Numbered from the stretch's first letter, positions 10,596 to 37,674 are shown. The stretch is 64,000 bases of DNA from a bacterium (GCA_037200965.1 JBBCGK010000001.1:640001-704000); one strand, 5' to 3'. The notes: generated by a model from the letters alone, not told the origin. A program made the numbers and translations.

Positions 10596-11230
10596 ATGAA
10601 GGAATTCGTACCTACATCACGCGCGAAAAATCCGGAGCCCGATACTTCAGATATCGCCGAATGGCTTGAAGGCGAATCAAGGGAGGTGCGCGCGCTCTTT
10701 AATCAGCTGCCGCGTCCGCTTTGGAGACGGCATTATCAGGCCATAGAGGATCGTATCGCGGCGAGTCCAGACCTCAACCCTGAAGCGCTAGCGCAAGAGA
10801 AGCTTGGGTATCTCTTAGGAGTAGTGGAAGCCAGGAGAGTAAGTCTGGAAGAGTTCAAGTCGACCGATCCGCATTTTCGGGAGTTGATAGCCGAACCTAA
10901 ATTCGGTGAGAGACTGCAGGGATTGCTTGAGTCTCCGGAAGAGACGCTCGGCGCCGGACAAACTGCGCGCGTAAAGCGACTTAGCCTTGCCGGCGAACGT
11001 AACGCTGCGGTGAAGTACCTCCTCACCCCCACACAAAAAACTCTCTCGGCAGAAGGAGAGCATGACATGCTGTGGGAAGTTGATACGGTGACGCATATCG
11101 AAGAGGAAGAACACAAAATAGGCGCGGGCTCCAGAATCCGCGTACCGCACCCATACTTTTACTACAAGAACGAAAAGCTCCAATGTTATGGCATGGAAGA
11201 AATTAAAGGTCAAACCATCGAGCGGTACAT
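10596..11230 (+). pseudogene. protein kinase-like gene, N-terminal fragment (Gly-loop GAGQTARV, AVKYL, hinge YGMEEIKGQTIERY) truncated by IS30 insertion
   Basis: N-lobe kinase motifs; the reading frame runs into the IS30 terminal repeat at 11231. Confidence 0.6.
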
Positions 11231-12268
11231 TCAAGAATATATCGCAACACCCGTATCCCTCCAGAATACTTCCTCGGGCGTCAGCCCGCCATGGCGCTTG
11301 CGTGGTCGGGTATTGATGAGGCGTTCCGCTCGAGCAAGCTCCTCGTCAGAGACCAAACTCCAGTCGGTCTTCTTTGGGAAAAATCGACGGGCTAGACCAT
11401 TCGCGTTCTCGTTTGAGCCGCGCTCGCACGAGCTGTATGGATGGGCGAAGAATATATCCATGTCGAGTGCTTCTTTGACTTCTTCCCACCGCACGTTCTC
11501 CGTACCGCGGTCTCGCGTGAGCGTCTTGCGCACGCGCTTTGGAAGAGCGGAGAGCCGTTTGATGAGTGCCTCGTCGCAGACAACGGCCGTACCATCCTTG
11601 GCCTTCTCAAAGAAGGTCACACCGCTCCTGCGCTCGGTCATACTTTTGACACGGTCGGTTGATTGCCTCGACACCATGGTGTCGTCTTCCCAGTCACCGA
11701 TGCGGGAGCGTTCGTTCACCACCTCGGGACGCGCTTCGATTGAGGGCAACGCCTCATTCCGTGCCATTCTGCGGGCTTTCCTGAAGCCCTGCTTCGCACG
11801 CGCCTTGTGGCGACGTGCCAAATGCGGCCGCAGATCGGTCTCTCCGGGCTTCACCGATCCTCGGCCCTTGCGATGTATCCTGCGGTATACCTCCTGGTAT
11901 ACCGCTTCGGTTGAGATGCGCATGGAAGGGTCGTCGGGGTATTCAAGTGGCAGTCGTATATGCACTTGCTCGGGAGACCATTTCTTTTCCCGCATCTTCT
12001 CCTCGACGTACGCTTTGAGTGTTGGGGTACGCTTCATTTTTGGCGTGTTGCCTCGCTTGCCAATGCGTTCTTGCGCTTTTGCGTGTGCCGCTTCAGCTCG
12101 ATACCGCCCCATCCCTTTGCGCGGTTTCCCCGCAAGCTCGCGGGAGACCGAGCTCTTGTTGCGGCCGAGTTCCGTGGCCATGTCCGTGACGCTCTTTGCG
12201 TCCTTGCGCCATCTGACTTCGATGATGCTTCGTTCGCGGAGCGTGAACGGTCCCTTGTTTTGTGCCAT
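11231..12268 (-). CDS. IS30-family transposase
   Basis: HTH N-term, DDE core DRGTEN, C-term HPYSSCERGSNENANGLARRFFPK, LINTRPRKRHGGLTPEEVF; ATG at 12268 (the track start at 12274 is TTG). Confidence 0.85.
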   Translation of the reverse strand: MAQNKGPFTLRERSIIEVRWRKDAKSVTDMATELGRNKSSVSRELAGKPRKGMGRYRAEAAHAKAQERIGKRGNTPKMKRTPTLKAYVEEKMREKKWSPEQVHIRLPLEYPDDPSMRISTEAVYQEVYRRIHRKGRGSVKPGETDLRPHLARRHKARAKQGFRKARRMARNEALPSIEARPEVVNERSRIGDWEDDTMVSRQSTDRVKSMTERRSGVTFFEKAKDGTAVVCDEALIKRLSALPKRVRKTLTRDRGTENVRWEEVKEALDMDIFFAHPYSSCERGSNENANGLARRFFPKKTDWSLVSDEELARAERLINTRPRKRHGGLTPEEVFWRDTGVAIYS

Positions 12269-12315
12269 ATCCAATTAGCCTAGTCTGCTAATTGGGTGTT
12301 GCAATTAATTCTGGA
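11231..12315 (-). mobile_element. IS30-family insertion sequence (~1085 bp)
   Basis: terminal IRs CAAGAATATATCGCAACACC (11232-11251) vs GGTGTTGCAATTAATTCTGG (12295-12314, reverse complement, 16/20 match); transposase stop inside IR. Confidence 0.75.
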
Positions 12316-12690
12316 ACTTAGGAGCAGCTTCTAAGTACCGGTACACCGAATACGCTTGCCGAGACTGAACAACGCGAAGCGGTCTGGAAAGCCTTGCGAC
12401 GCAGATACTCGGATCCGCAAGAGCAGGCATCTCTGCATACAGAACTCGACAAGTTTGTATTCGCGGTACACACCGTATGTCTTCATGGGGATATCAAGCT
12501 CGCGAATATGATGGTAGACGGAGAAGGCACCATCTACCTTATCGACTTTGGACAGTCGATAGACATGAACGCCATGAACGACAAAGCCCGCGAGCAGTTC
12601 GAGAATTTACAGGTTCTCGAACGCGACCAGGTTAAATTCTGCATTCGCTCACTCCTTGACGGCATAACGCGCCCAAAGCCCACTGTTTAA
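12316..12690 (+). pseudogene. protein kinase-like gene, C-terminal fragment (catalytic loop HGDIKLANMMV, DFG)
   Basis: frame open from 12322 (after a TAG at 12319), continues the kinase fold: LHGDIKLAN...LIDFGQS. Confidence 0.6.
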
Positions 12691-15311
12691 TCTTGAAGGT
12701 ACGGGAACCGTACCTAGTGGACCTCATCTCCAAGCTAAGATACGATCCCGAGAATACGCGCAGCAAACGTAAAAGCTTCTGCCAAATCGCTTTTAGCCAA
12801 AATACGAATTGACGGAAGGCGGTATCGTCAAACGCCCCATAAACGGACGCGGTTTGCGTTTGACGAACCACGTTCGCAGTTCCTGCACGTTCCTGTCTTT
12901 GAATCGGCGTATTTTCGATTGGCATTGATTTTATTTCTTGGGCAACGAGCGCAACTTCTTTGCGCGCTGGATTGACCACCGGACTTCCGGGAATAAGCGA
13001 AATCGCTGTTGTCGCCGTCGCGTGGGAAGCGGCACTTTCGGAAGAACGCCTGCCAACATCCGATACGGAAGACGTCGTAGTCGGCTGAAGCGAATTAGCG
13101 GAATATGGTACTGCCTCACCAAGCCGCGGAGTGATCTCGATATCGACCATGCCGTCGCCGTCTTCGTCAACTATAAGCGCGCTGGCGTGTCTCAGGTCAC
13201 CCGCAACTTTCATTGATGCTCTCGTGCGCTCGCGTACAGGCACCCCGTATATCGTGCTTGATGCGATAACACGGTCTCCTTCCTGTTCCTCAAGATCGAC
13301 CGAGAATGTTCCGGAACCGGTACCGCGAAGTTCGATTTCATAGTTCCGGCCCGCGGGGACGATACTATACTTGACCTCTCCGAATTCCCCGTACGTCGAA
13401 CCCGGAATATCCTCCCGTATCCTGCCGTCGTCGGTAAGGCCGGTGCGGCGTCCGCGCCCATCGGATACTTCGAGCGCGAGCGGGGAATGCAGAAAGAAGA
13501 GGAGTTTCTTCGCGGTCGGGAGTACGGGTTCGGTCGTGACGATCGAAGCCGGTGTTTCTTCGGTATTTGTAAGGATGCTCTCGATGAAAGCGCGCACGTC
13601 CGGATGCTCGAAGATGGTTCCGTGGTCGCTGTCGCTTCCTGCGAGATCTATCCAGTATTTCCTTGCTCCCGTATCCATCATGAGCGCGCTTATGCTCGGC
13701 ACGACGCCGTCGCCTCTGGGGGTGAAGAGCGGACGATATTCGCGAAGCGCGGGAGTTTCGGCACCGATAGGCCCGGCGAACGTGCGGGGGAGCGTATAGA
13801 AGTCGATACCGGAGACCGTTGAATCGACGCCGAAGCCCGCGAGCTCGTAGACGGCCGTGCCCGCGGGCGGCTGCCATGCGTCGATCGAGTCGTGCGTGGC
13901 GGAAGCATAGGCAAGAAGCGATTCGTTCGCATTATTCGCGGAGAGAAATTCCGCGAGTTCGTCTTCGCGGTTGAGAATTTCTCCATACGCATCTTCTTCC
14001 GCCGCATACGCCTCTCCTTCGAACTGTCCTACGGGGAGATCGGAGTCGCTAAAGTACGCCTCCGAAGGCAGGAGGTGGTATGCCATCGGCGCGTTCTGCG
14101 CGAATTCGCGCGCCGCGTCGGCGGAGACCACCGGAACGATGCCGTTAAGCGCCGCGATGCCCTGGTTGAGCCCGTAGAGGAGCGCGCCGACCGCTCCCGG
14201 CGCGCCGCTTTGCGGTACCCCGACAAGAATGACCTTGTCGATAAGCCGGGCGGTTTCCTCGCCTCCGAGCTTTTCCATGAGCGCTTTCGCGACCAGGCCG
14301 CCGTTGCTGTGCGCGATGACCGTCACCCGTCCGCTCTTTGATGTCGCCGCAAGCGAATGAAGCGTCTGTTCTATATACGGGGTGCTCGTCGCTTCTTCAT
14401 AGAAGATCATTCCGTCGCGCAGGGTGCCGTGTTCGATAATGTCCGGAAGCGACAGGCGCCAGTCGTAGGCGGCAGCTTTCCAGTCGCGTATCGTTCCCGC
14501 GCTTTTGAGCGCATCCATTTCATCCATGAAAGAGGCGTAGAAACGGTTGCCGTCGGCTTCGTCGATAACATCGCTTTCTTTGGCGTACAGATCGCTCCGC
14601 GCACTCTTTCCCGCGCCGTTAAGCGACAAGCTTTTCATCCGCTCGTTACCGATCCCGCCGAGAATATCGGCGATCGAATCGTTTTCCCCGATCGACCGGT
14701 TCCCAAAGCTTTCCTTCGGGTCCGTAGAGACGGCTGCCCTCGATGCCGGGAAGGAACAAGACATTCGATACTCCCGGCAGGGGAGGAGGCTCGGGGGTAT
14801 CCGGCTGCTTCACGGCTATCGCGGTGCTTGTCGCGGTTGCCATATACCCGGCCTCGTCCTCGACTGTCACCACCGCAACGACTGCCGCCGCATCCGGGCC
14901 AAGCGCGGGAATATTCATGGGTATGTTCTCAAGCGCTACGACGCCCTCTTCCGCAAACGCGCCCGTCATGGAATGAACCTGGCTCGCGATCGGTCCGTGA
15001 TACGCGCCGCTCCGGTCTATCGCGTACTGATAAATGATTGCGGACTTGAACGGAGAGAAAGTATCGTGCGCGAATCCTGCCAACATCGCACCCCACACGA
15101 TGCCGGGCTCTATCTCGCGGCCGTTCGTCGTATGGAAGTCGGTCAAAGTGACGGATATATCCGGCGTGGAAGTTGCGGCTGCCTCGACAGAGATTGCTTC
15201 AAGGGACAGGCTATCGGGCGAAGTGGCTTCCTCGGCATGCGCGGTAGCCGCAAAACCGCAAAGGAACAGCATGACTGACGCATATAACAGACCGCGCAAG
15301 AACATTCGCAT
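12632..15311 (-). CDS. secreted LCAT/PGAP1-like alpha/beta-hydrolase (lipase/acyltransferase), apparently frameshifted near 14650-14760
   Basis: signal peptide and LFLPGIEGSRLY in the 14646..15311 ORF; YDWRLS and lipase box IAHSNGG in the 12632..14764 ORF; the two ORFs overlap in different frames. Confidence 0.5.
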
Positions 15312-16564: not shown

Positions 16565-17029
16565 ATGCGACGTCCTCTTAAAAAGAAGCGAACCTGGCGC
16601 CCCGACCTCAAGTACGGATCGGAAGGCCTTGAGCGTTTCGTAAACGCGGTCATGTGGGACGGAAAGAAAGATACCGCCCGCGCGGTCGTCTACGGCGCGC
16701 TTGAGAAGGTAAAGGAGAGCGGCGCAGACCCGCTTGAGACGTTCGAAGCGGCTATCAGGAACGTCTCTCCTCTTATGGAAGTCCGCTCCCGCCGCGTCGG
16801 CGGCGCGAACTATCAGGTGCCGCGCGAGGTTCCCCAGCAGCGCCGTCTCGCGCTTTCCTATCGCTGGATTATCGGCGCTGCCCGCTCGAAGAAGGGCAAG
16901 CCGATGGCCGAGAAGCTCGCCGAGCAGCTCGTCCTCGCCGCAAAGAACGAAGGCGACGCCATCAAGAAGAAGGATGACATGCACCGCATGGCGGAGTCGA
17001 ACAAGGCATTCGCGCACTTCGCGTGGTAG
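16565..17029 (+). CDS. rpsG: 30S ribosomal protein S7
   Basis: S7 sequence, follows rpsL by 5 bp. Confidence 0.9.
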   Translation: MRRPLKKKRTWRPDLKYGSEGLERFVNAVMWDGKKDTARAVVYGALEKVKESGADPLETFEAAIRNVSPLMEVRSRRVGGANYQVPREVPQQRRLALSYRWIIGAARSKKGKPMAEKLAEQLVLAAKNEGDAIKKKDDMHRMAESNKAFAHFAW

Positions 17030-17050
17030 TCATTTCATAGTATCCGAAAC

Positions 17051-17089
17051 ACAAAAGACGGCCGCGCTACGGCCGTCTTTTGTGTTTGC
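17051..17089. terminator. bidirectional rho-independent terminator
   Basis: ACAAAAGACGGCCG-CGCTA-CGGCCGTCTTTTGT then TTTG; between convergent rpsG and hypothetical gene. Confidence 0.6.
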
Positions 17090-17151
17090 GGCGGTGAATA
17101 CAAAGCAAAGGGTACGGTCCTGAGACCGCACCCTTTCACTCACCCCTTCTC

Positions 17152-17661
17152 TTATCCGGACCGAACGAGCTGCTGTAGCACCCGCACCTGGTCTCCTTCG
17201 TACCGGGCTGCTGCCCGAAGAGTTTCGGCCGTTTTCATCCATTCCCCGATTGCGGTGTGTATGCCGGATCCGATAACCGCTCTCAGAGTACCTGGAAGGT
17301 CGTTCTTGGCCATATCGCCGCCCGGGAGGGAATCGAAGAAAGCGTCCCAAGAGAGCCTTGCGAGACAACCGTATCCGTCTATTTTTGGGGGCGGCTTCGG
17401 GCCAACCAAATACACGCGGACGAACCCGCCTTTGACGGTGACTGGTTTCCCGTCCTTGCGTTCAAGCGAGCCGGGAACGGGAGCGTCGAGCGCCGTAAGA
17501 ATTTCATAACCCGGCGGCATATCGAATGTGACGGCCGCGATTGCTTCGAGGAATGCGCGTTCGTTTCCGTCCGGGTGACGGGCGATAGCTTCGACCGGAA
17601 TGCAATGACCGGACAATTCCTCCAAGTGCGAGAAAGCGGCGATAGAGCTGATGATGCGCAT
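17152..17661 (-). CDS. hypothetical protein (169 aa)
   Basis: ORF only; cargo between rpsG and IS481-like element. Confidence 0.4.
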   Translation of the reverse strand: MRIISSIAAFSHLEELSGHCIPVEAIARHPDGNERAFLEAIAAVTFDMPPGYEILTALDAPVPGSLERKDGKPVTVKGGFVRVYLVGPKPPPKIDGYGCLARLSWDAFFDSLPGGDMAKNDLPGTLRAVIGSGIHTAIGEWMKTAETLRAAARYEGDQVRVLQQLVRSG

Positions 17662-17744
17662 GATTTCCTCCTTGCGCTAGAACGGATTTACGGAATCGAA
17701 TCCGGAAGCACCATAGCATGGCCGTCCGGTTTTTACCCTAAGCA

Positions 17745-18845
17745 GCCGGATTGCCGCAACTTGCACAAGTTCAGATACATATGGCACTCCTCCTAACTGA
17801 GGAGCGATGCGTCAATTCAACATACTGAAGGATACCGAGGGCTGGTTGTATATGCGCGAGCGGAGCATACGCTTCCTGCATATGAGGAACAACGACGAGG
17901 TGCGGCATCGGGTCAAGGTGCTGGACTTCTGGAAAACGCACGGGGAGCGTGCGGCCAGGGACGCCTTCAGCGTCTCTCGCCGCACGCTCTTCCGTTGGCA
18001 GGCGAAGCTCGACCGCGCGCACGGGAGACTCGACGCGCTCGATCCCAAGTCGACGGCACCGAAGAATCGGAGGAGACGCATCGTCCTCCCCGAGGTCGAG
18101 ACGTTCATCCTGAAGGAGCGCGCGGAGCATCCGAGGCTCGGCAAGGCGAAGCTCGCAGCCCTGCTGCGGGAGGACGGGTACCGGGTATCCGAATCGTATG
18201 TCGGGAGGGTCGTCGCGGACCTCAAGAGGAGAGGGCTGCTGCTCCCGCACAAGCCGCTCTCATACTATGCGCGAAGCGGCACGTATCGGGAGAAGCCCGT
18301 ATCGAAGCGCACGAAGCTGCGCAGGCGGCACAAGCGGGGCATGGAGCTCGACACCGTCGTCCGCTTCATCGACGGCGTGAAGCGGTACGTCCTGACCGCC
18401 ATCGATGTCGAGAAGAAGTTCGCCTTCGCCGGCGCGTATACCGTCCACTCCTCCGCGTCCGCCGCCGATTTCCTCGCGCGCGTCATCGCGGTGTGCCCCT
18501 TCGACATCACGGAGCTCCAGACCGACAACGGCCCGGAGTTCGCCAAGAACTTCGAGGCGGGGTGCCGCGCCCTCGGCCTCACCCACTTCAATACGTTTCC
18601 CCGCAGCCCGAAGATGAACGCGTTCGTCGAGCGGTTCAACCGGACGATCTCGGAGGACTGCATCATGCTCAATCGGCCGCTCCTGCGGGACGACGTCGCG
18701 GCATTCAACCTGAAGCTGGTCGACTGGCTGCTCTGGTACAACGCCCGGCGTCCGCACGAGTCCCTGGGACAGGTGCCGCCGCTCCGGTATATACTCTCCT
18801 CATTAACGGCCGAGGAGTGCCAGAGGTACTGGACGCGTACGCCTG
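17745..18845 (+). mobile_element. IS481-family-like insertion sequence (second, divergent copy); right end abutted by IS30
   Basis: upstream end CATATGGCACTCC...CTAACTGAGGAGCGATG resembles the IS at 6973-7944; the C-terminal ECQRYW segment is homologous to the ECSIC-stop IR of the first copy; approximate boundaries. Confidence 0.55.
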
Positions 18846-18850
18846 AACCC
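17807..18850 (+). CDS. IS481-family DDE (rve) transposase (ORF in the track reads through to 19003 into the adjacent IS30)
   Basis: HTH N-term, TDNGPEF, SPKMNAFVERFNRT, RRPHESLGQVPPLRY; no stop codon before the IS30 junction. Confidence 0.7.
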
Positions 18851-19849
18851 CACTCTAACTGCAACACTCACTTCCTCAGAAATATCGAGCGCGGTGATTC
18901 GAATTTCAGACGCTTGCGCGGCCGGTCATTGAGCTTCTTCACCACATGCGCCAGCTCCTCAGGGGTGATCAGGTTGAAGTTGAGCGAACGAGGAAAGTAC
19001 TGACGCAGGAGTCCGTTGGTATTCTCGTTGGTACCACGCTCCCAAGGACGGTGCGGGTATGCGAAGTACACGGTTGCCCCGCTCTTCTTCCCGAGTCGCT
19101 TCCAGTCGGCAAATTCTGGACCGTTGTCGAGCGTGATGGTCTTGCGTTTGGCACGCGGAATATGACGGAAGCGTGCGAGCGCAAGCGACGTGAGGAGCTC
19201 GGCGCGCATCTTGGGCAACAAGTATGCAACCAGGTATCCGCTCCTGCGATCCACAAAGGTGACAATGCGGACTCGCTTGTCGCTGCCTTGCACCGTATCG
19301 CCCTCCCAGTCGCCGAGCCGGCTTCGTCGTTCAATAATCGTTGGACGGTCATCAATACGCTGCTTCTTGGCCGCTTCACGAGCCTTCTCGCGTATTTTGG
19401 TACCGCGCCTGCGACGGTATTTGCCTTTGGATGATCTGAGGAACTGCTTCAGGTGCGGAGCACGCTCCTCAATATATCGGTATATGGTGCTGGCGGAGAC
19501 TGCACCCGTCACCCCTTCAATTTGCTCAGGAGAGTGGTGGTCTTTGAGCATACGCACCACCGTGCGCAAGAGCGCACCCTTGAGCACGCGAATACTGTCC
19601 ATTGCAGCAATGCGTTTCAGCTTCTTCTTTCTGCGTACTTCGCGTACATCATATCCCTCACGTCCGCCGTATTCGTTCACATGACGAGAGATCGATCCTG
19701 CATCCTTCTCAAGCGTACGTGCGATCTCTCGGATCGCGTGTCCTGCCCGCAGCATGCGGGCAATCACCGGCCAGTCTCCTGGCCCAATCTGGGTATGTGC
19801 CATATCCAGAGAGTGTGGAACCCAAAAGAGCTGTTGCAATTAGCCTGCA
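18846..19849 (-). mobile_element. IS30-family insertion sequence (second copy, different lineage)
   Basis: ends CTAACTGCAACAC (18855-18867) and CTGTTGCAATTAG (19831-19843) inverted; same architecture as IS30 at 11231-12315. Confidence 0.65.
18868..19803 (-). CDS. IS30-family transposase
   Basis: DDE core, YFAYPHRPWERGTNENTNGLLRQYFPR, LNDRPRKRLKFESP. Confidence 0.85.
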   Translation of the reverse strand: MAHTQIGPGDWPVIARMLRAGHAIREIARTLEKDAGSISRHVNEYGGREGYDVREVRRKKKLKRIAAMDSIRVLKGALLRTVVRMLKDHHSPEQIEGVTGAVSASTIYRYIEERAPHLKQFLRSSKGKYRRRRGTKIREKAREAAKKQRIDDRPTIIERRSRLGDWEGDTVQGSDKRVRIVTFVDRRSGYLVAYLLPKMRAELLTSLALARFRHIPRAKRKTITLDNGPEFADWKRLGKKSGATVYFAYPHRPWERGTNENTNGLLRQYFPRSLNFNLITPEELAHVVKKLNDRPRKRLKFESPRSIFLRK

Positions 19850-19888
19850 AACTTTGTTGCGATTAGGGTGGGGATTCACCTACACAAC

Positions 19889-19918
19889 TTTGACAGACCT
19901 TTGTCTATAGGTTATTAT
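19889..19918 (+). promoter_or_regulatory. sigma70-like promoter TTGACA-N18-TATTAT upstream of 19963 gene
   Basis: consensus -35 and near-consensus -10 with 18-nt spacing; flanked by CCTTTGTC/GACAAAGG inverted repeat. Confidence 0.35.
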
Positions 19919-19962
19919 ATCCATGGATTCCCGAGTGGCGGGACAGACAAAGGGAGACGTGC

Positions 19963-20391
19963 ATGAACAATCCTGAATTCCGCGAACTCGCGCAGGAAAT
20001 CGATCTGTTTTTGTATTCGGCTGACGGCGAGCGCATCACCGACTATCTGAAGTTCCATGAGAAGCGTATCGTCCTGTTCCGCTCCACGGACTTGGGCGTA
20101 TACCGCTGCTACGGCCTCATGTATGCGGGCTTCGCCTGCTGGGCGGATGCCGACGTCGAGCCCGACGCTGACCCGGCGCTTCGTTCGCTTGACGCTGAGT
20201 CATTCGTCGCGCGCTGGTTCAAGGAAACGGGCGACAACTCCGCCGCGTCGCTCGTCGAAGCGATCAGGCAGGGTTATAGGCGGTTGTGCGAAGAGGATGA
20301 AAACCCCCCGCTCACTGGCCTTGTCCTCGGAATTATCGTTTTCCTCGCCGTTTTCATCTTCCTTGGACTCAAGATCACGGGTCATCTCTGA
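19963..20391 (+). CDS. hypothetical tail-anchored membrane protein (142 aa)
   Basis: single C-terminal hydrophobic helix LTGLVLGIIVFLAVFIFLGL. Confidence 0.4.
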   Translation: MNNPEFRELAQEIDLFLYSADGERITDYLKFHEKRIVLFRSTDLGVYRCYGLMYAGFACWADADVEPDADPALRSLDAESFVARWFKETGDNSAASLVEAIRQGYRRLCEEDENPPLTGLVLGIIVFLAVFIFLGLKITGHL

Positions 20392-20429
20392 CGGCCCGTT
20401 CGCAAGAACCGGTACAACACTTGGGCGCG

Positions 20430-20463
20430 GGCCCGGACCACAAATCCGGGCCTTTGCTTTTCC
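20430..20463 (+). terminator. rho-independent terminator
   Basis: GGCCCGGA-CCACAAA-TCCGGGCC then TTTGCTTTTCC. Confidence 0.5.
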
Positions 20464-20549
20464 TAGAAAACCCGCTACTCTATGGATAACGCCTCGGCGC
20501 TTTTATTTTTACCGCTTCCAGACACAACACATCCCTTACGTACTAGTAT

Positions 20550-22697
20550 ATGAACCGCGACTACCCGCTTGAGAAAGTCAGGAACTTCGGAATCATCGCC
20601 CATATCGACGCCGGAAAGACCACCACGTCCGAGCGCATTTTGTATTACACCGGTTCCCAGCACAAAATCGGCGAGGTGCACGACGGAGAGACCACGACCG
20701 ACTGGATGGAGCAGGAGCGGGAGCGCGGCATCACCATCACGGCCGCCGCCATCACCTCCTTCTGGACCCGCACCAGCGAGCCGGACAAGAAGGACGTTTC
20801 GAAAAAGTTCCGCTTCAACATCATCGACACGCCGGGACACATCGACTTCACGGTCGAGGTGAAGCGGTCCATGCGCGTCCTTGACGGCGCGGTCGTCGTT
20901 TTCGACGGCGTCGCGGGCGTCGAGCCGCAGTCGGAGACCAACTGGCGCTATGCGGACGAGGCCAATGTGCCGCGCCTCTGTTTCATCAACAAGCTCGATC
21001 GCACGGGCGCATCGTTCGAGTTCTCCTATAAGAGCATTCTCGACCGCCTCTCGAAGAAGGCCGTGCGCATGCAGATCCCGGTGGGAGAGGAAGACCAGCA
21101 CGAAGGCGTCATCGACCTCCTTTCCATGAAGGCTTTCACCTTCACGGGCAACATGGGCGACATCGTGACCGAGGGAGAGATCCCGGCGAACCTCCTTGAG
21201 GACGCGAAGAAATACCGCGCAGAGCTCATCGAGCGGATCGTCGAGCACGACGAGGCGGCGATGAGCGCGTATCTTGAGGGCAGGGAGCCCGAAGTGGCGG
21301 AGCTTAAGACGATTCTCCGCAAGGCCGTGATCGCGAACGCGATCTTCCCGGTCTTCACCGGTTCCGCGCTCAAGAACAAGGGCGTGCAGCTCGTGCTTGA
21401 CGCCGTCGTCGACTATCTCCCGTCGCCTCTCGACATGCCGCCCGTCAAAGGCATCAACCCGAAGACCGGCGAGGAGGTCGTCCGCAGGGCTTCCGACGAC
21501 GAGCCGTTCACCGCGCTTGCCTTCAAGCTCCAGACCGATCCGTTCGTCGGTGCCCTTACGTTCTTCCGCGTCTATGCGGGAACTTTGACCGCAGGCTCGT
21601 ACGTATACAACTCGACGACCGGCAGCAAGGAGCGCGTCGGCCGCATCGTGCGGCTTCAGGCTGATAAGCGCGAGGAAGTGGAGAAGGTGTTCGCGGGAGA
21701 GATCGCGGCGGCCGTAGGTCTCAAGGACACGAAGACTGCGCACACGCTCTGCGACGAGGCGAATCCGATCATCCTCGAGACTATCAAGTTCCCGGAGCCG
21801 GTGGTATCGCTTCGCATCGAGCCGAAAACCAAGGCCGACCAGGAGAAAATGGGCATGGCGCTCAAGAAGCTCTCCGACGAGGACCCGACCTTCCGCGTCA
21901 CCTCGGACGCCGAAACCATGGAGACCATCATCTCGGGGATGGGCGAGCTGCATCTCGAGATTCTGGTCGACCGCATGCAGCGGGAGTTCAACGTGGGCGC
22001 GAATGTCGGGAAGCCGCAGGTGGCATACCGCGAGACGGTGCTCGGCGCGTCCGATGCCGAAGGCAAGTACATCAAGCAGACCGGCGGCAAGGGCCAGTAC
22101 GGGCATGTGAAGATCAAGATGAAGCACCTCGAGCCTTTGGACCCTGAAGCGAAGATTCCGAAGAACGTCACGCGCGAAGCCAATTTCGAATTCATCAACA
22201 ACATCAAAGGCGGCGTGGTGCCGGCTGAGTTCATCGCTCCCGTCGAGAAGGGTATCCGCGAGTCGATGGCGCGCGGCATTCTCGCGGGCTTCCCGGTCGT
22301 CGACATCTCCGTCGACCTCTACGACGGTTCGTACCACGACGTGGACTCCTCGGAAATCGCCTTCAAGATCGCGGCATCGATGGCCTTCAAGGAAGCCGCG
22401 ACCCGCGCGAAGCCGGTGATTCTCGAGCCGATCATGAAAGTGGAGGTGGTGGTGCCGGAGAAGTTCATGGGCGACATCACGGGGAACCTCTCCGGGAAGC
22501 GCGCTTCGATCGAAGGCATGGAAGAGCGCGGCATGAACAAGGCGGTGCACGCCAAGGTGCCGCTCTCCGAGATGTTCGGGTATACGACGACGCTGCGCTC
22601 CATGACCGAGGGCCGCGGCTCCATGACCATGGAATTCGACCACTACGAAGTCGTGCCCCAAAACGTCGCGCAGGACATCATCGCGAGCAGGAAGTAG
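20550..22697 (+). CDS. fusA: elongation factor G
   Basis: [16 protein letters not shown]-domain, domains II-V; 715 aa. Confidence 0.95.
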
Positions 22698-27734: not shown

Positions 27735-28668
27735 TTTTACAAGGGTAATCCCTAATTCCTGCCACCAAACCCAGTGCCCTGAACGAGCGTGAGCAGACGC
27801 TCCTCCTGCTCGGCAAGCGTCTTCGTGCGGCGGTTGAACTTCCAGGCGATCTCTCCGACGAAGAGGTACAGATGCGTACGGCGCATGCCGCCGATGCATC
27901 CGAGACGACGCTTCAAGAGCCCCCAGAAGCCCTCGATGTTGTTCGTATGCACGTCGCCGCGTACGAGCTCTCCGCCGTCATGATCCACGTACTCGTGACG
28001 GTACCCCCGCTTCTTGAGGCCGCGGTATGTTTTGAAGCCGTCGGTATACACGTACGCTCCCTCCGGCACCAGCCGCTCGATCGTGCTGAAGATGGTCCTC
28101 CAATCAAGCTTCTTGGGGAGTATGGCGACATATACCTGTCCGGAGGTCCGCGAAAAGAGCCCGAAGATGGGAAGCTTGTCGGTCCCGTGACCGCGCTTCG
28201 TTTCCAGACGCCGGATGTGGAGACGTTTGTTCTTGCGCTGGCCGCCGATGTACGTTTCGTCCATCTCGATTGGACCGGGAAGCACGGCTGGCTGGTCAGC
28301 CGTCATGACCGTACGGAGATGGAGTGCCATGCGCTCCACGCGCGAATGCGGTATTCCCGTCTCCTCAACGATACGTTTGATCGTCCGCTCCCTGAGGAAG
28401 ACACGTATGCACTTCCGCCACTCGGCTTCCGTGCTGCGGATGCCCTCAACTGGAGCTGCGTGCCCGCTCCACTCGCGTCTGCACCGCCTGCACTTCAGTT
28501 TGTTCCTGCGGAGTTTCCAGGCACGGCGGAAGGCGCAATACGGACATACAGGAGCGGGCATATATGGTGGCACTATTAGGTATTGCACCACTGTGCCCGT
28601 CAGAGAGCCTCACGCAAGGATATTTCAAAGATATGTGGTGGCAGAGTTAGGGATTACCCTTTACAAAA
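27735..28668 (-). mobile_element. IS1595-family insertion sequence (934 bp) with ~33-bp terminal inverted repeats, inserted immediately after the rplB stop codon
   Basis: TTTTACAAGGGTAATCCCTAATTCCTGCCACCA (27735-27767) vs reverse complement of GTGGTGGCAGAGTTAGGGATTACCCTTTACAAAAG (28634-28668). Confidence 0.8.
27752..28591 (-). CDS. IS1595-family (ISXO2-like) transposase
   Basis: N-terminal CPYC...CRRC zinc ribbon, DETYIGG, HTNNIEGFWGLLKR; stop inside the IR; alternative start at 28561. Confidence 0.85.
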   Translation of the reverse strand: MVQYLIVPPYMPAPVCPYCAFRRAWKLRRNKLKCRRCRREWSGHAAPVEGIRSTEAEWRKCIRVFLRERTIKRIVEETGIPHSRVERMALHLRTVMTADQPAVLPGPIEMDETYIGGQRKNKRLHIRRLETKRGHGTDKLPIFGLFSRTSGQVYVAILPKKLDWRTIFSTIERLVPEGAYVYTDGFKTYRGLKKRGYRHEYVDHDGGELVRGDVHTNNIEGFWGLLKRRLGCIGGMRRTHLYLFVGEIAWKFNRRTKTLAEQEERLLTLVQGTGFGGRN

Positions 28669-28671
28669 GAA

Positions 28672-28700
28672 AAAGCCCCGCCAGACCGGCGGGGCTTTTT
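28672..28700. terminator. bidirectional hairpin terminator GCCCCGCC-AGACC-GGCGGGGC flanked by A- and T-runs
   Basis: 8-bp GC stem with AAAAA upstream and TTTTT downstream. Confidence 0.55.
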
Positions 28701-28709
28701 CTTTCCGGC

Positions 28710-29495
28710 TTATTGGTATTCGGGCTTCAAGATGTCCGCGAAATCGGAACGCGGCAGGCGCACGGTCTGCGGACCTATGGCATACGGGCCGACGGCGTAA
28801 GGAGGGAAGAAAATAAGGAGATCGGTACCGTCAAGCGCAAAGAACTGGAAATTTCCCGCGTCGTCCGGCGACGTTCCGGTGTCGACGAAATCCGGAAGCG
28901 CGTACTCCCCGAGCGCTGCGTACAGGAATGCCCGCGATGCTCTGGAGAGCGCGTCGAGATACGGCGCGCTACGCATGAACAGATCGCCAAGTTGGAGTGC
29001 CTTGCCGGTCGTGGAATCGAATGTGAACGTGCGGTAGTAGCTGTTGGGGTGCGCACCGAGCGTATCCTCGTAAATACTGAAGACATAGGAGAGCGTACGG
29101 GGTGACGCATATGCCGCATACTCGATATCCTGCGCGTATTTCTTATCAGGCCCGAGTTCCTGAAGTTTTATATCTTCTTCCGTAAGGTTTCCGAGGCGGT
29201 TCTGGTTCTTGAATTCCGCTTCCGCGGCCAGTACCCATGTCTCCATGACCTTTGCCGCATGTGCGTCCGCCTCCGCCCCGGCGGTTACAAGAAGCGGGGT
29301 TGATGCGGGATAGATGGCGTCGATGAGGTAGTAGTCGGCGTGGTCCGCAACCGTCTTGGAGGTCGTAGTTGCATTTTCCCCGGAAGGGACAGGGGCCACT
29401 CCGGGTGCCGGATTCTCGGCCATGTACCAGAGAAGGCAGGCAAGTATGGCAACCAGCACCGCACCGAGCGCGATCCGTTCGCAAGTGGTGTTCAT
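28710..29495 (-). CDS. membrane-anchored DUF3298/RsiV-like domain protein
   Basis: N-terminal anchor; C-terminal region resembles the DUF3298 family; recognition from memory only. Confidence 0.4.
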   Translation of the reverse strand: MNTTCERIALGAVLVAILACLLWYMAENPAPGVAPVPSGENATTTSKTVADHADYYLIDAIYPASTPLLVTAGAEADAHAAKVMETWVLAAEAEFKNQNRLGNLTEEDIKLQELGPDKKYAQDIEYAAYASPRTLSYVFSIYEDTLGAHPNSYYRTFTFDSTTGKALQLGDLFMRSAPYLDALSRASRAFLYAALGEYALPDFVDTGTSPDDAGNFQFFALDGTDLLIFFPPYAVGPYAIGPQTVRLPRSDFADILKPEYQ

Positions 29496-29599
29496 GCGAG
29501 AAAGTGTAGCACCCGCATATCAGGGAAAAATGAAGGGCTCCGGAATAGCCAAATGAAAGGGCCCGGGCGGTAATGCCACCCGGGCCCCCCAACGAAGGC

Positions 29600-30049
29600 T
29601 TAAGATTTGCAGGGACCTGTCCCGCAGGTTTTGCAACTTTTGCACGTTCCGTGTCTTATCCCTTTTCTCTTTCGGGAATTTCGCGCCTCTTCTCCGGGCA
29701 TGGCTTCGCCGAAGCGCGCGAAATAGAGCTTCGAGGTTCTCGCGTACCCTCTGCGGGAGCTTGCGTTCGGCTCAAGTTCAGGCTGATGGTGGAGGAAACC
29801 GCCGAAGACCGTCTGACAGTCCGAAGCGTACTTCTTCGTCATCAGGATATGTTCATGCCAGGCCCAGTCGATCATGTGAGACGGTGCCAGAGATTTGCGC
29901 GGATTTTCGCGGCAAAGCGTGTAGAACCGGCGCAAACCGAGAACGCACATCTTTGCGACCGGTTCGGTAAGACGCAAGGCAAGTTTGTGCTCCACTGCCC
30001 CGAGGTCGAGTCTCCGGATAGCGCTTGGAAGGTTCTTTTTGACGGCCAT
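29600..30049 (-). CDS. small DUF1399-like protein with Cys-rich C-terminal tail
   Basis: DWAWHEHILMTKKYASDC..FGGFLHH resembles the WHxHxL motif of GRDP/DUF1399; tail HGTCKSCKTCGTGPC. Confidence 0.3.
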   Translation of the reverse strand: MAVKKNLPSAIRRLDLGAVEHKLALRLTEPVAKMCVLGLRRFYTLCRENPRKSLAPSHMIDWAWHEHILMTKKYASDCQTVFGGFLHHQPELEPNASSRRGYARTSKLYFARFGEAMPGEEARNSRKRKGIRHGTCKSCKTCGTGPCKS

Positions 30050-30257
30050 CTCGGCCTCCTGCTGTGATTGCCGTTCCAGAGTAGCAAGGCGCGCAGCACC
30101 AGGTCAACCATAGAATCATACAAGTATAATGTGTTTTGTCTACGTTTTAAAACGGCCTTGCAAGTACGAGCTCTTTTGAAACGGTACGATTTGACTCTTT
30201 ATCCCGGCTCCTGTATCTTGCACCTATCTCGCGCTATGCGCGGGCTTTACCTTACTC

Positions 30258-33200: not shown

Positions 33201-33761
33201 ATGATGCTTTCCAAACAAAAACAGCAGACCTCCTTCGAAGCTCTCTCGGCTGATTTCGGCTATACGAGCCGCATGCAGGCGCCGCGCATCGAGAAGGTCG
33301 TCGTCTCCTCGGGAGTCGGCAAGAAGCGCGACAAGAAGCAGCTCGAACTCATTTCCGAGCGCCTCGCCCGCATCACGGGCCAGAAGGCGGCACCGCGCGC
33401 GGCAAAGCAGTCGATCGCGCAGTTCAAGATGCGCGCGGGCGATACGGTCGGATACCAGACGACGCTCCGCGGGGCGCGCATGTTCGATTTCCTCGACAAG
33501 CTCATTCACATTGCCTTGCCGAGAACCAGGGACTTCCGCGGCCTTCCCGCGACCGCGATCGACGACATGGGCAACCTCACGATCGGCATCCGCGAGAACA
33601 CCATCTTCCCGGAGACTTCCGACGAGGACCTCAAGGACGTGTTCGGGCTTGCCGTGACCATCGTCACGACCGCGAAGTCGAAGAAGGAGGCCGATGCGTT
33701 CTTCCGCCACCTTGGCGTGCCGCTTCGCCCGGCTGAGGAGCAGAAGAAGGGGAAGAAATAA
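33201..33761 (+). CDS. rplE: 50S ribosomal protein L5
   Basis: L5 sequence. Confidence 0.9.
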   Translation: MMLSKQKQQTSFEALSADFGYTSRMQAPRIEKVVVSSGVGKKRDKKQLELISERLARITGQKAAPRAAKQSIAQFKMRAGDTVGYQTTLRGARMFDFLDKLIHIALPRTRDFRGLPATAIDDMGNLTIGIRENTIFPETSDEDLKDVFGLAVTIVTTAKSKKEADAFFRHLGVPLRPAEEQKKGKK

Positions 33762-33785
33762 AAAAGTTTTAAAATGCAGGGAGCC

Positions 33786-33814
33786 TTGACGGGAGTCAGG
33801 GCTCTTTGTATCAT
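33786..33814 (+). promoter_or_regulatory. sigma70-like promoter TTGACG-N17-TATCAT directly after rplE
   Basis: good -35/-10 with 17-nt spacer, upstream of island gene A. Confidence 0.4.
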
Positions 33815-33895
33815 ATATTCGGATACTTCACATTCTCGGATAGTGACGTTAACGGTATCCACGTCGAGCGTCCGATGGCATCAAGGAGATGTGTC

Positions 33896-34309
33896 ATGCG
33901 GTTTGTCTGTGATCTTGAGGATTTGTTCTGGATGAGTAATAGATACGAGCATACTGCCAGCAATGAGATCAGGCAGGCGCTTCTTGCCGGAAAGGATACG
34001 GACGGAACTCCGCGCTGGACGATTCCGGGGGCTGGAATGTTCAATCTTGCCCAAGTCCTCTGGTCGGGCCAAAACTCGGTTGGCCATGAAGAGGACTGCG
34101 CACGAGACCGTATGTTCACCAGTCTCGAGCTCATGCGTCGACTGGGCCACGCCCGTGCACGCTCGCAGGCTGTGTTTTTTCTCGTCATTCTCCGGAGGAT
34201 GGAGCGCGAGAACAGCGACTCCATCGAAATCAATATCCCGTGGACCCGTGCGAAGACGAGGTGCATGTATGTCAAACGGAAACCAAATATCGAATTCGGT
34301 CTGGTATAA
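33896..34309 (+). CDS. hypothetical protein A (137 aa) of the rplE-rpsN island
   Basis: ATG with AAGGAG RBS 7 nt upstream; hairpin terminator 34316-34341 downstream. Confidence 0.45.
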   Translation: MRFVCDLEDLFWMSNRYEHTASNEIRQALLAGKDTDGTPRWTIPGAGMFNLAQVLWSGQNSVGHEEDCARDRMFTSLELMRRLGHARARSQAVFFLVILRRMERENSDSIEINIPWTRAKTRCMYVKRKPNIEFGLV

Positions 34310-34556
34310 CCGGACAGGGCGCGGCGGAACTTTCCGCCGCGCCCATCGTGTGTATGGGTCACCATTCTATATCAGGTACATACGAGTGAATTTGACGTAC
34401 TAAGTTATACATACCTTTTTTACGAATTAGTCCTGCAAGTGCTAATTTCTGGCAGCAGAATTGTTCCAATATCCTAAAGGAAACCCCGCAAAGCTTGGTT
34501 GCTTTGCGGGGCTCGACCGGAGGTCGATTTTTCAAACAAGGCTTAGTATGTCCGGT

Positions 34557-35348
34557 TCAGGTTTTGGGGTCGATGCTCATCGCGCGCGGTATCGATTTCC
34601 GTTGCCAGTTGTCGATTTTTCGCCTATCAGAACTCCTGCCGATTATGTATAAGACGAGTGAGATGATGCATACGGCCACGCCCGGGCCGAAGGAACCGAT
34701 GTCCAAAGCCTCCCCGGCCCACACACACAGGGCAAGGTATATGAAGCCCGTAGCACCGAGCACGTAGCTGACAGCCGTTAAACCGTTGCTCTCGCTCTCT
34801 TTGCGCCGATACGAGGTTAACAGGGATTCGGCGATCGGGAGTTCGCTTCCCGGTCCTTCATCCCACGCGGCAAGAGGATATACCCGGCCATCGTGAGCTC
34901 GGCCCACGAGCAGGCTCGGCCCGCTCGTGCCGAATGCGCCGGACTCATACTTGGGATACTCGGGAAGAGACTGACTGATCCAGACCTCGATGTCGGCGAA
35001 GCAGTCCAGCCAATTTACCCATTCCAGACCTTCGAGTACTTTGCGGGGGAATTTTTGCCCGTACCATGCTCGATAGGTCGTGCTGTAGGCATAACCATGG
35101 TACGTGTTCACAGTGCGCACTTTGCGGACACACTGCCACCCTTTCTGAGCCGAGAATTTCCCGGGAAGAGAGCATCTCCACTGGCTCAGGGAATTGGGGT
35201 CGAAGGGTTCGAGAAGCGGAACATGCCTACGAATTTCTTCGATCCGGTTAAGCCGAGGCAGCGCCATGAGTGCGTTCCTCGCATCCGCGTTCAGCGTCCG
35301 TCCGTAGGCGGCGACTGCTTCGATTCTTCGGGATTGGTATTCAGCCAT
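34557..35348 (-). CDS. hypothetical protein B (263 aa) with two C-terminal TM helices
   Basis: start ATG overlaps the upstream gene stop (TGATG coupling); C-terminal hydrophobic helices AVSYVLGATGFIYLALCVWA and VAVCIISLVLYIIG; terminator hairpin 34479-34510. Confidence 0.45.
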   Translation of the reverse strand: MAEYQSRRIEAVAAYGRTLNADARNALMALPRLNRIEEIRRHVPLLEPFDPNSLSQWRCSLPGKFSAQKGWQCVRKVRTVNTYHGYAYSTTYRAWYGQKFPRKVLEGLEWVNWLDCFADIEVWISQSLPEYPKYESGAFGTSGPSLLVGRAHDGRVYPLAAWDEGPGSELPIAESLLTSYRRKESESNGLTAVSYVLGATGFIYLALCVWAGEALDIGSFGPGVAVCIISLVLYIIGRSSDRRKIDNWQRKSIPRAMSIDPKT

Positions 35349-35956
35349 CACACGTCCTCCTTGCTCGGAGCCGCGACGAACGCGACCCAGTTGTGCCACG
35401 AGATTTCGGTCGGGACGGAGCCCTGCGAATTCTTGAGGCTGCAGAGGGAGGAATAGAAGTAGTTGATGAGGCCGGCCGGATTGCCGTTGAGCGGTTCCGT
35501 GACGAACGCCACGAAGCTGCCGTCGGGTATGCGCGGGTCGTGCCCGAGATCGTCCGCGAGCCGCGGGCGCTCTGCGAACAATGCGTCTCGATACTCGACC
35601 GGTGCGGGAACGAGGCTGGCCTTCTGGCCGTATTCCTCGATCTGCCCGGGCCTGAGCCGACCGTTTTTGCCCGAATCGCCGAAGCGGACGAGCATGAGGG
35701 TTTTGTCCTCACCGCCGATCGCGATCCTCACCGCGCAGGCCTTGCCGCCTTTCGGCGGGTCGATCCGCGCCGTGGTCGCGATCTCGCTATAGAGCCCGGA
35801 GAGCTCTGCGAGAACACGCTCAAGCCTGCTGCTATGCGCGGGCTTGACCACCGCGGCGAGCAGCTCATTCAGGTCTGCGCCGGTTTGCCCGCGAACGAGC
35901 TCGCCGATCTGACCGAGCGCCCCGAAGAGCACCGTGGCCGTGACAGGTTTTGGCAT
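35348..35956 (-). CDS. hypothetical protein C (202 aa), translationally coupled to B
   Basis: ORF with 1-nt stop/start overlap with B; no recognisable domain. Confidence 0.45.
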   Translation of the reverse strand: MPKPVTATVLFGALGQIGELVRGQTGADLNELLAAVVKPAHSSRLERVLAELSGLYSEIATTARIDPPKGGKACAVRIAIGGEDKTLMLVRFGDSGKNGRLRPGQIEEYGQKASLVPAPVEYRDALFAERPRLADDLGHDPRIPDGSFVAFVTEPLNGNPAGLINYFYSSLCSLKNSQGSVPTEISWHNWVAFVAAPSKEDV

Positions 35957-36272
35957 GACACTTCCTTTCTATGAACCCCTCACTCCTTAGCGAAGCCCCA
36001 GGTTCAACAGCCTTACCTCCACCCGATTGTGGCGGTTTCAGCGCGCAACAGCCCACTTTAGTGAGCCCCTGAGCGCTGAAACCGCCCCTAGCCTTGTTTT
36101 CAAGGGACGTATCTATCTAAGAGTGTATACTATATATCATATCTTGTCAAGTTTTCCGTAATGGTTCAATACCTTGGATGATTCCAGGGTATTGACAGAT
36201 AATACTGTATGTGCTAACGTTACTTAAGCGTTCGGGCCGCTCTTTTCAGCTCGGAACCAATGGAGGAACATC

Positions 36273-36668
36273 ATGAACAAGATTTATCTGGCTATCATGG
36301 CCGTCATTTCCCTCTCCGGCATCGCCCTGGCCTTCAGCCCCGAGGCGGTGTTCGAGAGCGCTTCCCGGGTTGACCCGGGCGGCACCCTGTCGTTCGCGAA
36401 CTTCTCCTTCTGGACGTGCGTCTGCATCGGGGGCGTCGTTTTCTTCTTCTCCCGTCGCGGATCACAAGGAAAAGAAATCGCGAGGATCGGCTTGCTTCTC
36501 GGAGCCGCGGCCGCGTGCCTTGCGCTCATGTCGCTCACTCACTACTTCGCGTACTGGCATCAGGGCCTCGCGACGATGCTGGGCATCATCTTCTTCGTCT
36601 CCCCGCTGCTCGGCATCGCGATCGCGCTGTCCGACCGACAGCAGACATCGGTTCCGAACGGAGGCTGA
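36273..36668 (+). CDS. small membrane protein D (131 aa, 4 TM)
   Basis: hydrophobic helices; hairpin GGAGGCTGAAGCCTCC just downstream. Confidence 0.45.
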   Translation: MNKIYLAIMAVISLSGIALAFSPEAVFESASRVDPGGTLSFANFSFWTCVCIGGVVFFFSRRGSQGKEIARIGLLLGAAAACLALMSLTHYFAYWHQGLATMLGIIFFVSPLLGIAIALSDRQQTSVPNGG

Positions 36669-37522
36669 AGCCTCCGGTCAAGGACTCGGTTCGCACGCAG
36701 GTACGGCCCCACGCAATTCGGCGTGGGGTCTTTTGGATATATTCGACGCCGCCGGATATATATATAGTGTCCTTCCCGTTCGAGATATCGGCTGGTACGA
36801 TCAAGGATCCGGCACGTCCTCGGCTTGTGCAATGTCATCAAGCCGTAGTTGCGCTTGAACCAGTCCTCAATCGCAACACCTTCCAAACCCTCGGCGCGGT
36901 GTCTTCCGGCGAAGACACTTGCGAGGCTGGTGATTGAGAAGGCAGGTCACGCGGTCAGCCTGTCGCTGGGACAGCGCTCCGAGTTCCATGTCCTCGGGAA
37001 AGAACCGGCGCAGCTGTTCTCGCATGCACCCCGCTCCCAGGGATGATGGGGACGGGCGAAGTATACCCGGGCATTGGTATCGCGCTCAATGAACTGCCAG
37101 AGCGTGAACCCGGTACCACGATCGTACGTGATGGTATGTGCAGGAAGATCAGGAAGCGCTCCTCGCGCTTCCTGGTGCACCGTGTTCGTTTCGTCGTCAG
37201 ACACGAGCCGCGCCCGCAAGGAACCCGCCTCTTTCGGTCAACACGGGCCAGAAACCTTGCACGGTCGCGTCCGACCGCGGTATGGTCTCGTCGGATATGA
37301 TGCGTCCCTCTTCGGTGATCTGTTCGGGCGGTCAGCGCGCAGAAGCGCGGACAGAAACACCCGCTCGTCGCGTGTCAAGTGATGATGCGTTGAAGGCCCG
37401 AATGATGGATACCATTCGGGCTTGAAGACAGAAGCATTGCGTTTCAAGCTCGGATTTAAGCTATGATTTAGCGTTGACGCGGGTTGAACCCCGGGCAAAG
37501 CAGGCGCGGACCTCGTTCTCAT
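36560..37522 (-). pseudogene. degenerate IS30-family transposase remnant (multiple frameshifts)
   Basis: fragments ITYDRGTGF...YFARPHHPWERGACEN (36947..37219) and an HTH-like LTRDERVFLSALLRA (37238..37522), collinear with intact IS30 transposases but in different frames. Confidence 0.55.
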
Positions 37523-37674
37523 CCATTTTCGCGAAGTTCGTGATTTCGGTAAAGTTGTTTAGGCCGTCTGACGAAAGATTATCCCGCTTGGCCGCTCGAC
37601 CAAGCAGGGCTCCTGTTTGACGCCCCGTAACCTATTTGATACAGTGTCCTGAAGCTCCGCGGAGCTATTTTTGT

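Follow-up and report, generated by a model that had tools for sequence, protein, structure and literature searches.

The locus described here raises the question of what a pair of overlapping genes, called C and B, is doing between two ribosomal-protein genes: whether both are genes at all, where they came from and what their products might do. The pair lies on the minus strand of the window, the whole stretch of 64,000 nucleotides of bacterial DNA that was analysed (GCA_037200965.1, JBBCGK010000001.1:640001-704000), with C running from 35956 to 35348 (ATG start, 202 residues) and B from 35348 to 34557 (ATG start, 263 residues, isoelectric point 9.0). The best relatives of the L5 protein encoded beside the insertion, at 72-83% identity, are named Kaiserbacteria or Parcubacteria, and the host, a tiny uncultured bacterium, is assigned as a Kaiserbacteria-like member of the Parcubacteria/Paceibacterota within the Candidate Phyla Radiation (CPR). 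We consider it probable that C-B is a genuine, foreign and autonomous operon of two genes, which would encode a soluble protein and a membrane protein anchored by a helical hairpin. That the operon serves in conflict, as a module akin to toxin-antitoxin or abortive-infection systems, is a far more tentative proposal.

The two genes share a single base. The plus strand reads CATCA at 35346-35350, which on the minus strand is an ATGA-type junction, such that the TGA stop codon of C (35350..35348) and the ATG of B (35348..35346) have base 35348 in common, confirming the overlap claimed by the first-pass annotation. C and B thereby show the same-strand stop/start overlap that is taken as the mark of a translationally coupled operon, and ribosomes that have finished C could restart on B, in which case both proteins would be made together. 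Bacterial genes overlap by ATGA more often than in any other way, and by itself the junction is unremarkable. A mechanical list of open reading frames (ORFs) extends B to a GTG at 35399; the public annotation, in which C and B are entered as 'MAG: hypothetical protein WDN10_03940 / _03945' of a 960-kb contig, places its start at the ATG.

Codon usage was scored in all six frames with that of the ribosomal genes as reference. Here the annotated frame of C came top by a clear margin, and that of B came top narrowly (-0.34 versus -0.55 for the next best frame). The GC content of C at the first, second and third codon positions (GC1/GC2/GC3) was 0.66/0.47/0.82, with a GC3 that falls within the range of the host ribosomal genes (0.78-0.89), whereas the GC3 of B was 0.655, below that of host core genes. 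The other two intact genes of the island that carries the pair divide in the same way, D having a GC3 of 0.82, like C, and E137 one of 0.63, like B. The amino acid composition of B is protein-like, rich in Tyr, Ile, Lys and Asn, and unlike that of the Arg-rich antisense shadow ORFs; among alternative-frame and antisense ORFs across C-B, no Pfam family was found above noise. The best-of-six frames and the composition, together with the stop/start junction, the well-spaced Shine-Dalgarno (SD) motifs, the promoter-like site and the terminator, are the evidence on which C and B are taken to be real genes.

Signals for transcription and translation surround the pair, all of them on the minus strand unless stated otherwise. 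Upstream of C, where the AT-rich DNA separating it from the divergent gene D begins to offer such signals, lies a promoter-like site (TTGACA, 17 nucleotides, TACACT; 36122..36150), a consensus match only, at 10 of 12 positions. The 166-nucleotide leader of C-B folds with a predicted energy of -73.1 kcal/mol, compared with -51.4 +/- 3.8 kcal/mol for shuffled sequences (z = -5.75), and it contains an inverted repeat that would form an imperfect hairpin with 27-nucleotide arms, 81% complementary (36031..36086). This hairpin occurs once within the window and matched no Rfam family; it could be an operator palindrome, an element for RNA processing or stability, or a barrier to plus-strand read-through from rplE. 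An SD-like motif (AAGGAAG, 35961..35967) stands 4 nucleotides before the ATG of C, and a strong SD motif (AAGGAGG, 35356..35362) stands 7 nucleotides before the ATG of B, within the 3' end of C. Following B, an intrinsic terminator is predicted at 34476..34512 (fold z = -3.6), consisting of a 12-bp GC-rich stem and then UUUCCUUU; its counterpart on the plus strand is a terminator-like hairpin at 34513-34527. These predictions describe C-B as a self-contained transcription unit, with its own putative promoter and terminator, a leader hairpin and SD motifs.

The SD motifs point to a foreign source for the island. An SD motif is missing from all 21 core genes of the window, which encode ribosomal proteins, EF-G, EF-Tu and SecY (20550-41625), and in relatives it was present at 3 of 222 starts of L5, S8 and S14. 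All four island genes have one, at a spacing of 4-7 nucleotides, as against 0/21 core genes and 3/43 other host-like ORFs of the window (Fisher p = 2e-4); these 43 ORFs were called by an approximate heuristic and scored for a 5-mer SD motif at the first start codon. Nearly all other strong SD motifs in the window precede transposases or IS-adjacent ORFs: the rve transposases at 6989-7891 and 17807-19003, an ORF beside the latter at 17152-17661 and a 149-residue ORF beside an IS1595 transposase. Since the island genes carry SD motifs and the core genes have almost none, the island would appear to have been imported from a gene pool that uses them, and SD motifs seem to mark imported genes here. 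According to Tsurumaki et al (2022; PMC9297842), roughly half of Parcubacteria have no anti-SD motif in their 16S rRNA, a reported loss with which the pattern of SD motifs agrees; the 16S rRNA gene of this host does not fall within the window. If the host cannot use SD motifs, the stop/start junction may be the main route by which B is translated.

C is soluble, with an isoelectric point of 5.95 and no hydrophobic segment by Kyte-Doolittle analysis (19-residue window, >1.6). By the same measure B alone of the two proteins has peaks, at about residues 190-212 and 214-240, and hydropathy, Hessa energies and charge together predict two transmembrane helices, at residues 188-210 (34719..34787, minus strand) and 222-238 (34635..34685, minus strand). 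The summed Hessa apparent free energies of these helices were +1.2 and +2.0 kcal/mol, compared with at least +13 kcal/mol elsewhere in B and at least +8 kcal/mol in C; the helices are marginal in hydrophobicity yet clearly distinct from the rest of the protein. The loop between them (11 residues) contains no Lys or Arg and two Asp or Glu, while the tail that follows them (25 residues) is basic, with seven Lys or Arg and three Asp or Glu, and no signal sequence was found at the N-terminus. The basic flanks of membrane helices stay cytoplasmic, according to the positive-inside rule, and this charge pattern therefore predicts that both ends of B, the 187-residue N-terminal domain and the basic tail, are cytoplasmic. 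Taken at the level of sequence, the data indicate that B is a membrane protein anchored by a C-terminal helical hairpin and that C is a soluble cytoplasmic protein.

The first-pass annotation had described B as a soluble region of about 200 residues, rich in Trp and Tyr, followed by two transmembrane helices. The helices were upheld by both the Kyte-Doolittle and the Hessa analyses, and the architecture stands; the length was overstated, the soluble part being 187 residues, and residues 1-185 include seven Trp and 11 Tyr, approximately twice the usual frequency. A transmembrane module joined to a cytoplasmic domain, as would be expected of the membrane-disrupting abortive-infection effector suggested in the first-pass annotation, is thus present in B, though this arrangement is far from specific to that class. 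Single-sequence AlphaFold2 models had pLDDT scores of 35.6 (C) and 34.7 (B), too low to use; the low-confidence model of B has helices at residues 189-214 and 220-252, and that of C, which is weak evidence, has three N-terminal helices and then a beta-hairpin.

The island that carries C-B spans approximately 3.9 kb (33762..37635), between rplE (33201-33761) and rpsN (annotated start 37675), and its flanks are ribosomal-protein genes, not a defence island. Its order is E137 (plus strand), B and C (minus), D (plus) and the remnant of an IS30-family insertion sequence (IS) (minus), and GC content dips at 33750-34650 and 36000-36300. Ahead of E137 (137 residues; 33896..34309, plus strand) lie a promoter-like site (33786-33814) and an SD motif (AAGGAGA). 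D (131 residues; 36273..36668, plus strand), which has four hydrophobic segments and an SD motif (GGAGG), is divergent from C-B and is followed by a terminator-like hairpin at 36705-36730. The decayed IS30-family transposase survives as frameshifted pieces (36947..37522, minus strand), which match NCBIfam transpos_IS30 at 5.7e-15 without reaching its curated cut-off. In a match split over two frames, the remnant shares 43% identity with an intact IS30-like gene at 18868-19839. Its best plasmid matches, from a variety of phyla, reach no more than about 40% identity and give no clue to a donor. Beside this broken element the frames of C, B, D and E137 are intact (202, 263, 131 and 137 codons). 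Terminator-like hairpins were also seen after rplE and after E137, and rpsN has a promoter-like site of its own at 37617-37645 (TTGACG, 17 nucleotides, TACAGT, with a TG upstream). It would appear that the island breaks up transcription of the spc operon into separate units, C-B itself running antisense to the ribosomal genes.

To place this insertion in context, 16 consecutive junctions of the ribosomal-protein cluster were surveyed in 60-80 relatives, counting inserts of more than 300 bp. At rplE|rpsN (L5|S14) the median gap was 34 bp, and inserts above this threshold, of up to about 2.3 kb, were present in 24 of 76 Kaiserbacteria/Paceibacterota relatives. Fourteen of the 15 other junctions never exceeded 300 bp. 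The remaining one, L2|S19, did so in 47 of 60 relatives, where a conserved antisense DUF3298 gene was found in 36 loci; judged by this conservation the DUF3298 insert is a native feature of that junction. The cargo at L5|S14 varies from one relative to the next and includes, besides unknowns and several multi-pass membrane proteins, a PemK/MazF toxin (locus L046), a PaaX-like protein, an aspartyl protease, a DnaG zinc-ribbon fragment and a histidine-methyltransferase-like protein; none of it is similar to C, B, D or E137. Because unrelated cargo was found at L5|S14 only, C-B occupies the single slot of the cluster that is genuinely variable. To reveal strains with an empty site, metagenome contigs were scanned with a degenerate pattern of the rplE 3' end, and no match was found. 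In the literature we found no account of insertion slots in the ribosomal operons of CPR bacteria.

Two further gaps in the translation genes of the window were recorded. The 2.5-kb gap between rplB and rpsS (27735-30257) holds three minus-strand genes: an IS1595-family transposase (27752-28591) and, beside it, the 149-residue orphan ORF with an SD motif (29600-30049), neither of which is present at this junction in relatives, and a DUF3298 protein (28710-29495), which 36 relatives also have at this position. Between rpsG (16565-17029) and fusA (20550-22697) the translation cluster is interrupted a third time, by 3.5 kb (17030-20549). This insertion contains the intact IS30-like transposase with HTH_38 and rve domains (18868-19839, minus strand), the rve transposase at 17807-19003 (plus strand) and one orphan ORF on each strand (minus, 17152-17661; plus, 19963-20391). 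With the further rve transposase elsewhere in the window (6989-7891), this is what we take to be a high IS load for a genome estimated at about 1 Mb. Upstream of the rpsL-rpsG genes lie a 710-residue protein with an LCAT/alpha-beta-hydrolase (lipase-like) domain (12632-14764, minus strand) and, adjoining it, a 560-residue protein (10596-12278, plus strand) with no Pfam or PADLOC match.

Homology searches left the pair extremely isolated. Neither C nor B matched Pfam, NCBIfam, PHROGs or PADLOC at E values up to 1, and against PDB sequences both gave noise only. D had no significant match in the same four collections, an SPW-repeat hit being sub-threshold (19.7 bits against a cut-off of 31.5). 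When 5.8 billion proteins were searched through an index, each of C, B and D returned self-matches only; C was searched by this word-indexed method, from which relatives below about 35-40% identity may escape. Exhaustive phmmer of B against 1.84 billion representative proteins likewise returned B itself only, and the standalone housekeeping homologues that would have undermined the first-pass annotation did not appear. Scans of phage, plasmid, metagenome-contig and viral-contig collections for C (tblastn and patterns), of viral contigs for B and of plasmids for E137 (tblastn) found nothing, and E137 had no family match either. The island DNA matched nothing in the phage and plasmid collections (blastn). 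When C, B, D and E137 were compared with 9442 ORFs from 80 related loci (phmmer --max), no weak relatives were detected; tblastn of the island proteins against the window itself yielded no paralogues, and C and B are not similar to each other. In the collections searched, the pairing of C and B was found only at the same locus, in public copies that are 99.97-100% identical and therefore carry no evolutionary signal; the island is identical in at least three independent assemblies, and the pair is known from one species. Because neither C nor B has a detectable relative, there is no conservation of gene neighbourhood to analyse.

The layout of C-B recalls several known systems. In RexA/RexB of phage lambda the soluble protein is likewise encoded first and the membrane protein second, in an autonomous unit on foreign DNA, and the logic proposed for it, in which the soluble partner controls a membrane-compromising partner, is that of the conflict reading of C-B. 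However, RexA/RexB shares no sequence similarity with C-B, no PADLOC match was obtained and no phage genes flank the pair. RexB, moreover, is small and crosses the membrane four times; B combines a 187-residue cytoplasmic domain with nothing more than a C-terminal hairpin. Effectors of the CBASS Cap15, Pycsar PycTM and type III CRISPR Cam1/CARF-TM types also join a few transmembrane helices to a soluble domain that presumably binds a ligand or partner, and on activation their helices depolarise the membrane (Cam1: PMC10808066). All of these adjoin a cyclase or CRISPR-Cas10, neither of which is found beside C-B. Sensor domains (CARF, SAVED, beta-barrel) can be recognised in them, but B is without a Pfam or PADLOC match. 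Their helices, moreover, are usually N-terminal. Type II toxin-antitoxin systems with membrane-depolarising toxins, for example those neutralised by Panacea/PanA (PMC8832971), are small bicistronic operons on mobile DNA whose genes often overlap, and a membrane-active toxin neutralised by a soluble partner would parallel the roles proposed for B and C. In contrast to those systems, C has no Panacea/DUF4065 or other Pfam domain, and B, at 263 residues, is large for such a toxin. Pairs of a sigma factor and a membrane anti-sigma factor are similarly coupled: the soluble protein is encoded first, and the second protein is anchored in the membrane and has its N-terminal domain in the cytoplasm. 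The usual anti-sigma factor, however, has a single transmembrane helix followed by an extracytoplasmic domain, whereas B has a hairpin and a cytoplasmic tail.

Three assignments were rejected. A sigma/anti-sigma pair is not supported, as neither sigma-70 region 2 or 4 in C nor an anti-sigma domain in B was detected (Pfam, NCBIfam). Phage holins are small proteins of 60-150 residues encoded next to an endolysin; B has 263 residues with a large soluble domain, there was no PHROGs match and no lysin domain, the phage collection contained no match for C or the island DNA, and viral contigs contained none for C or B, all of which speaks against a phage lysis cassette. Membership of a known anti-phage defence system was rejected since hmmscan against PADLOC-DB v2, which includes Rex, CBASS, Pycsar, Abi and retron effectors, assigned C, B and D to no family at E values up to 1. 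As judged from the sequence-defined traits of known families, none of which it displays, C-B is outside all of them. From architecture and context we would group it provisionally with those mobile modules in which a soluble protein is coupled to a membrane protein.

How might such a pair act? C-B is probably an operon of two genes acquired horizontally, laid out like a prophage 'moron' and lying next to a decayed IS30 element. In the model that we tentatively favour, C would restrain B or sense a trigger, and once B was released its marginally hydrophobic hairpins would associate and compromise the membrane. This conflict reading was given the edge because of the extreme sequence isolation of the pair, its mobile island with four intact ORFs next to a broken IS30, its moron-like layout, the MazF-type toxin in the same slot of a relative and the soluble-plus-membrane designs known from defence. 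Established designs in defence include RexAB, in which a soluble protein accompanies a membrane protein, Cam1-type effectors and toxins that depolarise the membrane, and the genomic context fits an accessory or conflict gene, though it does not demonstrate defence. Nonetheless, we regard the proposal as doubtful, and a number of observations weigh against it. A soluble protein coupled to a hairpin-anchored one is a generic design, common to many non-toxic complexes. No toxin or antitoxin domain (PemK/MazF, RelE, helix-turn-helix or ribbon-helix-helix, Panacea) was recognisable in C or B with Pfam and NCBIfam at E values up to 1, nor did either protein match any family in the wider searches, and PADLOC found no known defence genes on the island or nearby, a scan that included E137 and five other ORFs of the window. 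The cargo of the slot in relatives is mostly not related to conflict. The GC3 step at the C/B junction, from 0.82 to 0.655, is abrupt and would be odd for a co-evolved pair; as it is unexpected for coupled genes acquired together, a mosaic origin of C-B is possible. If the host is without the anti-SD motif, the SD motifs of the island would go unused, and C-B might not be expressed in the present host. Finally, since no homologues were found, there is no co-occurrence, conservation or selection signal that could lend it support.

Other explanations account for part of the same evidence. That C and B are chance ORFs and not genes would explain why no homologue of either was found at all, and it gains from the frequency of long open frames in DNA of 57-65% GC, where singleton predictions are often artefactual, from the abundance of long shadow ORFs in the window, from the negative codon score of B against ribosomal-gene usage and from the very low AlphaFold confidence, though the latter is expected for single sequences. 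It is hard to reconcile with annotated frames that are the best of six, with a GC1/GC2/GC3 pattern in C typical of host genes, with amino acid compositions that differ from those of Arg-rich shadow ORFs and with charges that obey the positive-inside rule around the hydrophobic hairpin of B. Chance would also have had to supply correctly spaced SD motifs before both ATGs, an exact stop/start junction, a promoter-like site and a terminator, and we therefore consider this explanation highly improbable.

If C and B are genes, they could be imported passengers of no present use, ORFs still intact and equipped with the signals of their donor, not usefully expressed and heading for the decay that has already made a pseudogene of the adjoining IS30. 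SD motifs foreign to a genome whose core genes have none, in a lineage that often lacks the anti-SD motif, fit such a fate, as do a GC3 in B unlike that of host core genes and the restriction of the pair to one species. However, four island ORFs have remained intact while IS30 broke, and the host-like GC3 of C and D (0.82) suggests either residence under selection or a compatible donor. The stop/start overlap would permit translation of B without an SD motif, and the island recurs unchanged in at least three independent assemblies; on balance an inert passenger seems rather unlikely. A foreign but non-toxic complex, in which the membrane anchor of B recruits or regulates C for signalling, envelope functions or host contact and membrane damage has no role, strikes us as possible in the same hesitant sense as the conflict module. 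The architecture fits it equally well, uncharacterised membrane proteins with such functions are plentiful in CPR bacteria, neither Pfam nor PADLOC revealed a defence or toxin signature, and what relatives carry in the slot is for the most part genes for regulators and for membrane or secreted proteins. There is a long palindrome in the promoter region, and the three helices and beta-hairpin of the C model would, weakly, suit a regulator too. Set against this are the absence of any regulator, sigma/anti-sigma or transporter domain from the Pfam and NCBIfam results, and a sequence isolation and a mobile island that are more typical of conflict or mobile-element genes than of physiological complexes.

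The conflict reading can be carried one step further, to a claim that we think unlikely: C-B, perhaps together with D, would be the first known example of a family, so far unsampled, whose members act on the membrane as conflict modules of two components and circulate among the mobile genes of CPR bacteria or of their hosts, and it would have been imported with its SD signals intact. If that were true, translation of B would hang on the termination-reinitiation junction. To our knowledge, few defence systems have been characterised in the CPR, and C-B, should it prove to be a working conflict module, would add a defence or toxin family that lies beyond recognition by sequence. The importance of the pair itself is thus potential, and the more reusable results are the variable slot and the SD import marker. 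The rplE|rpsN junction acts as a lineage-wide landing slot for accessory genes in an otherwise rigid cluster, and SD motifs combined with this slot may provide a simple marker of recent gene import in SD-less Parcubacteria, where imported SD-led genes raise the question of how translation proceeds in this host.

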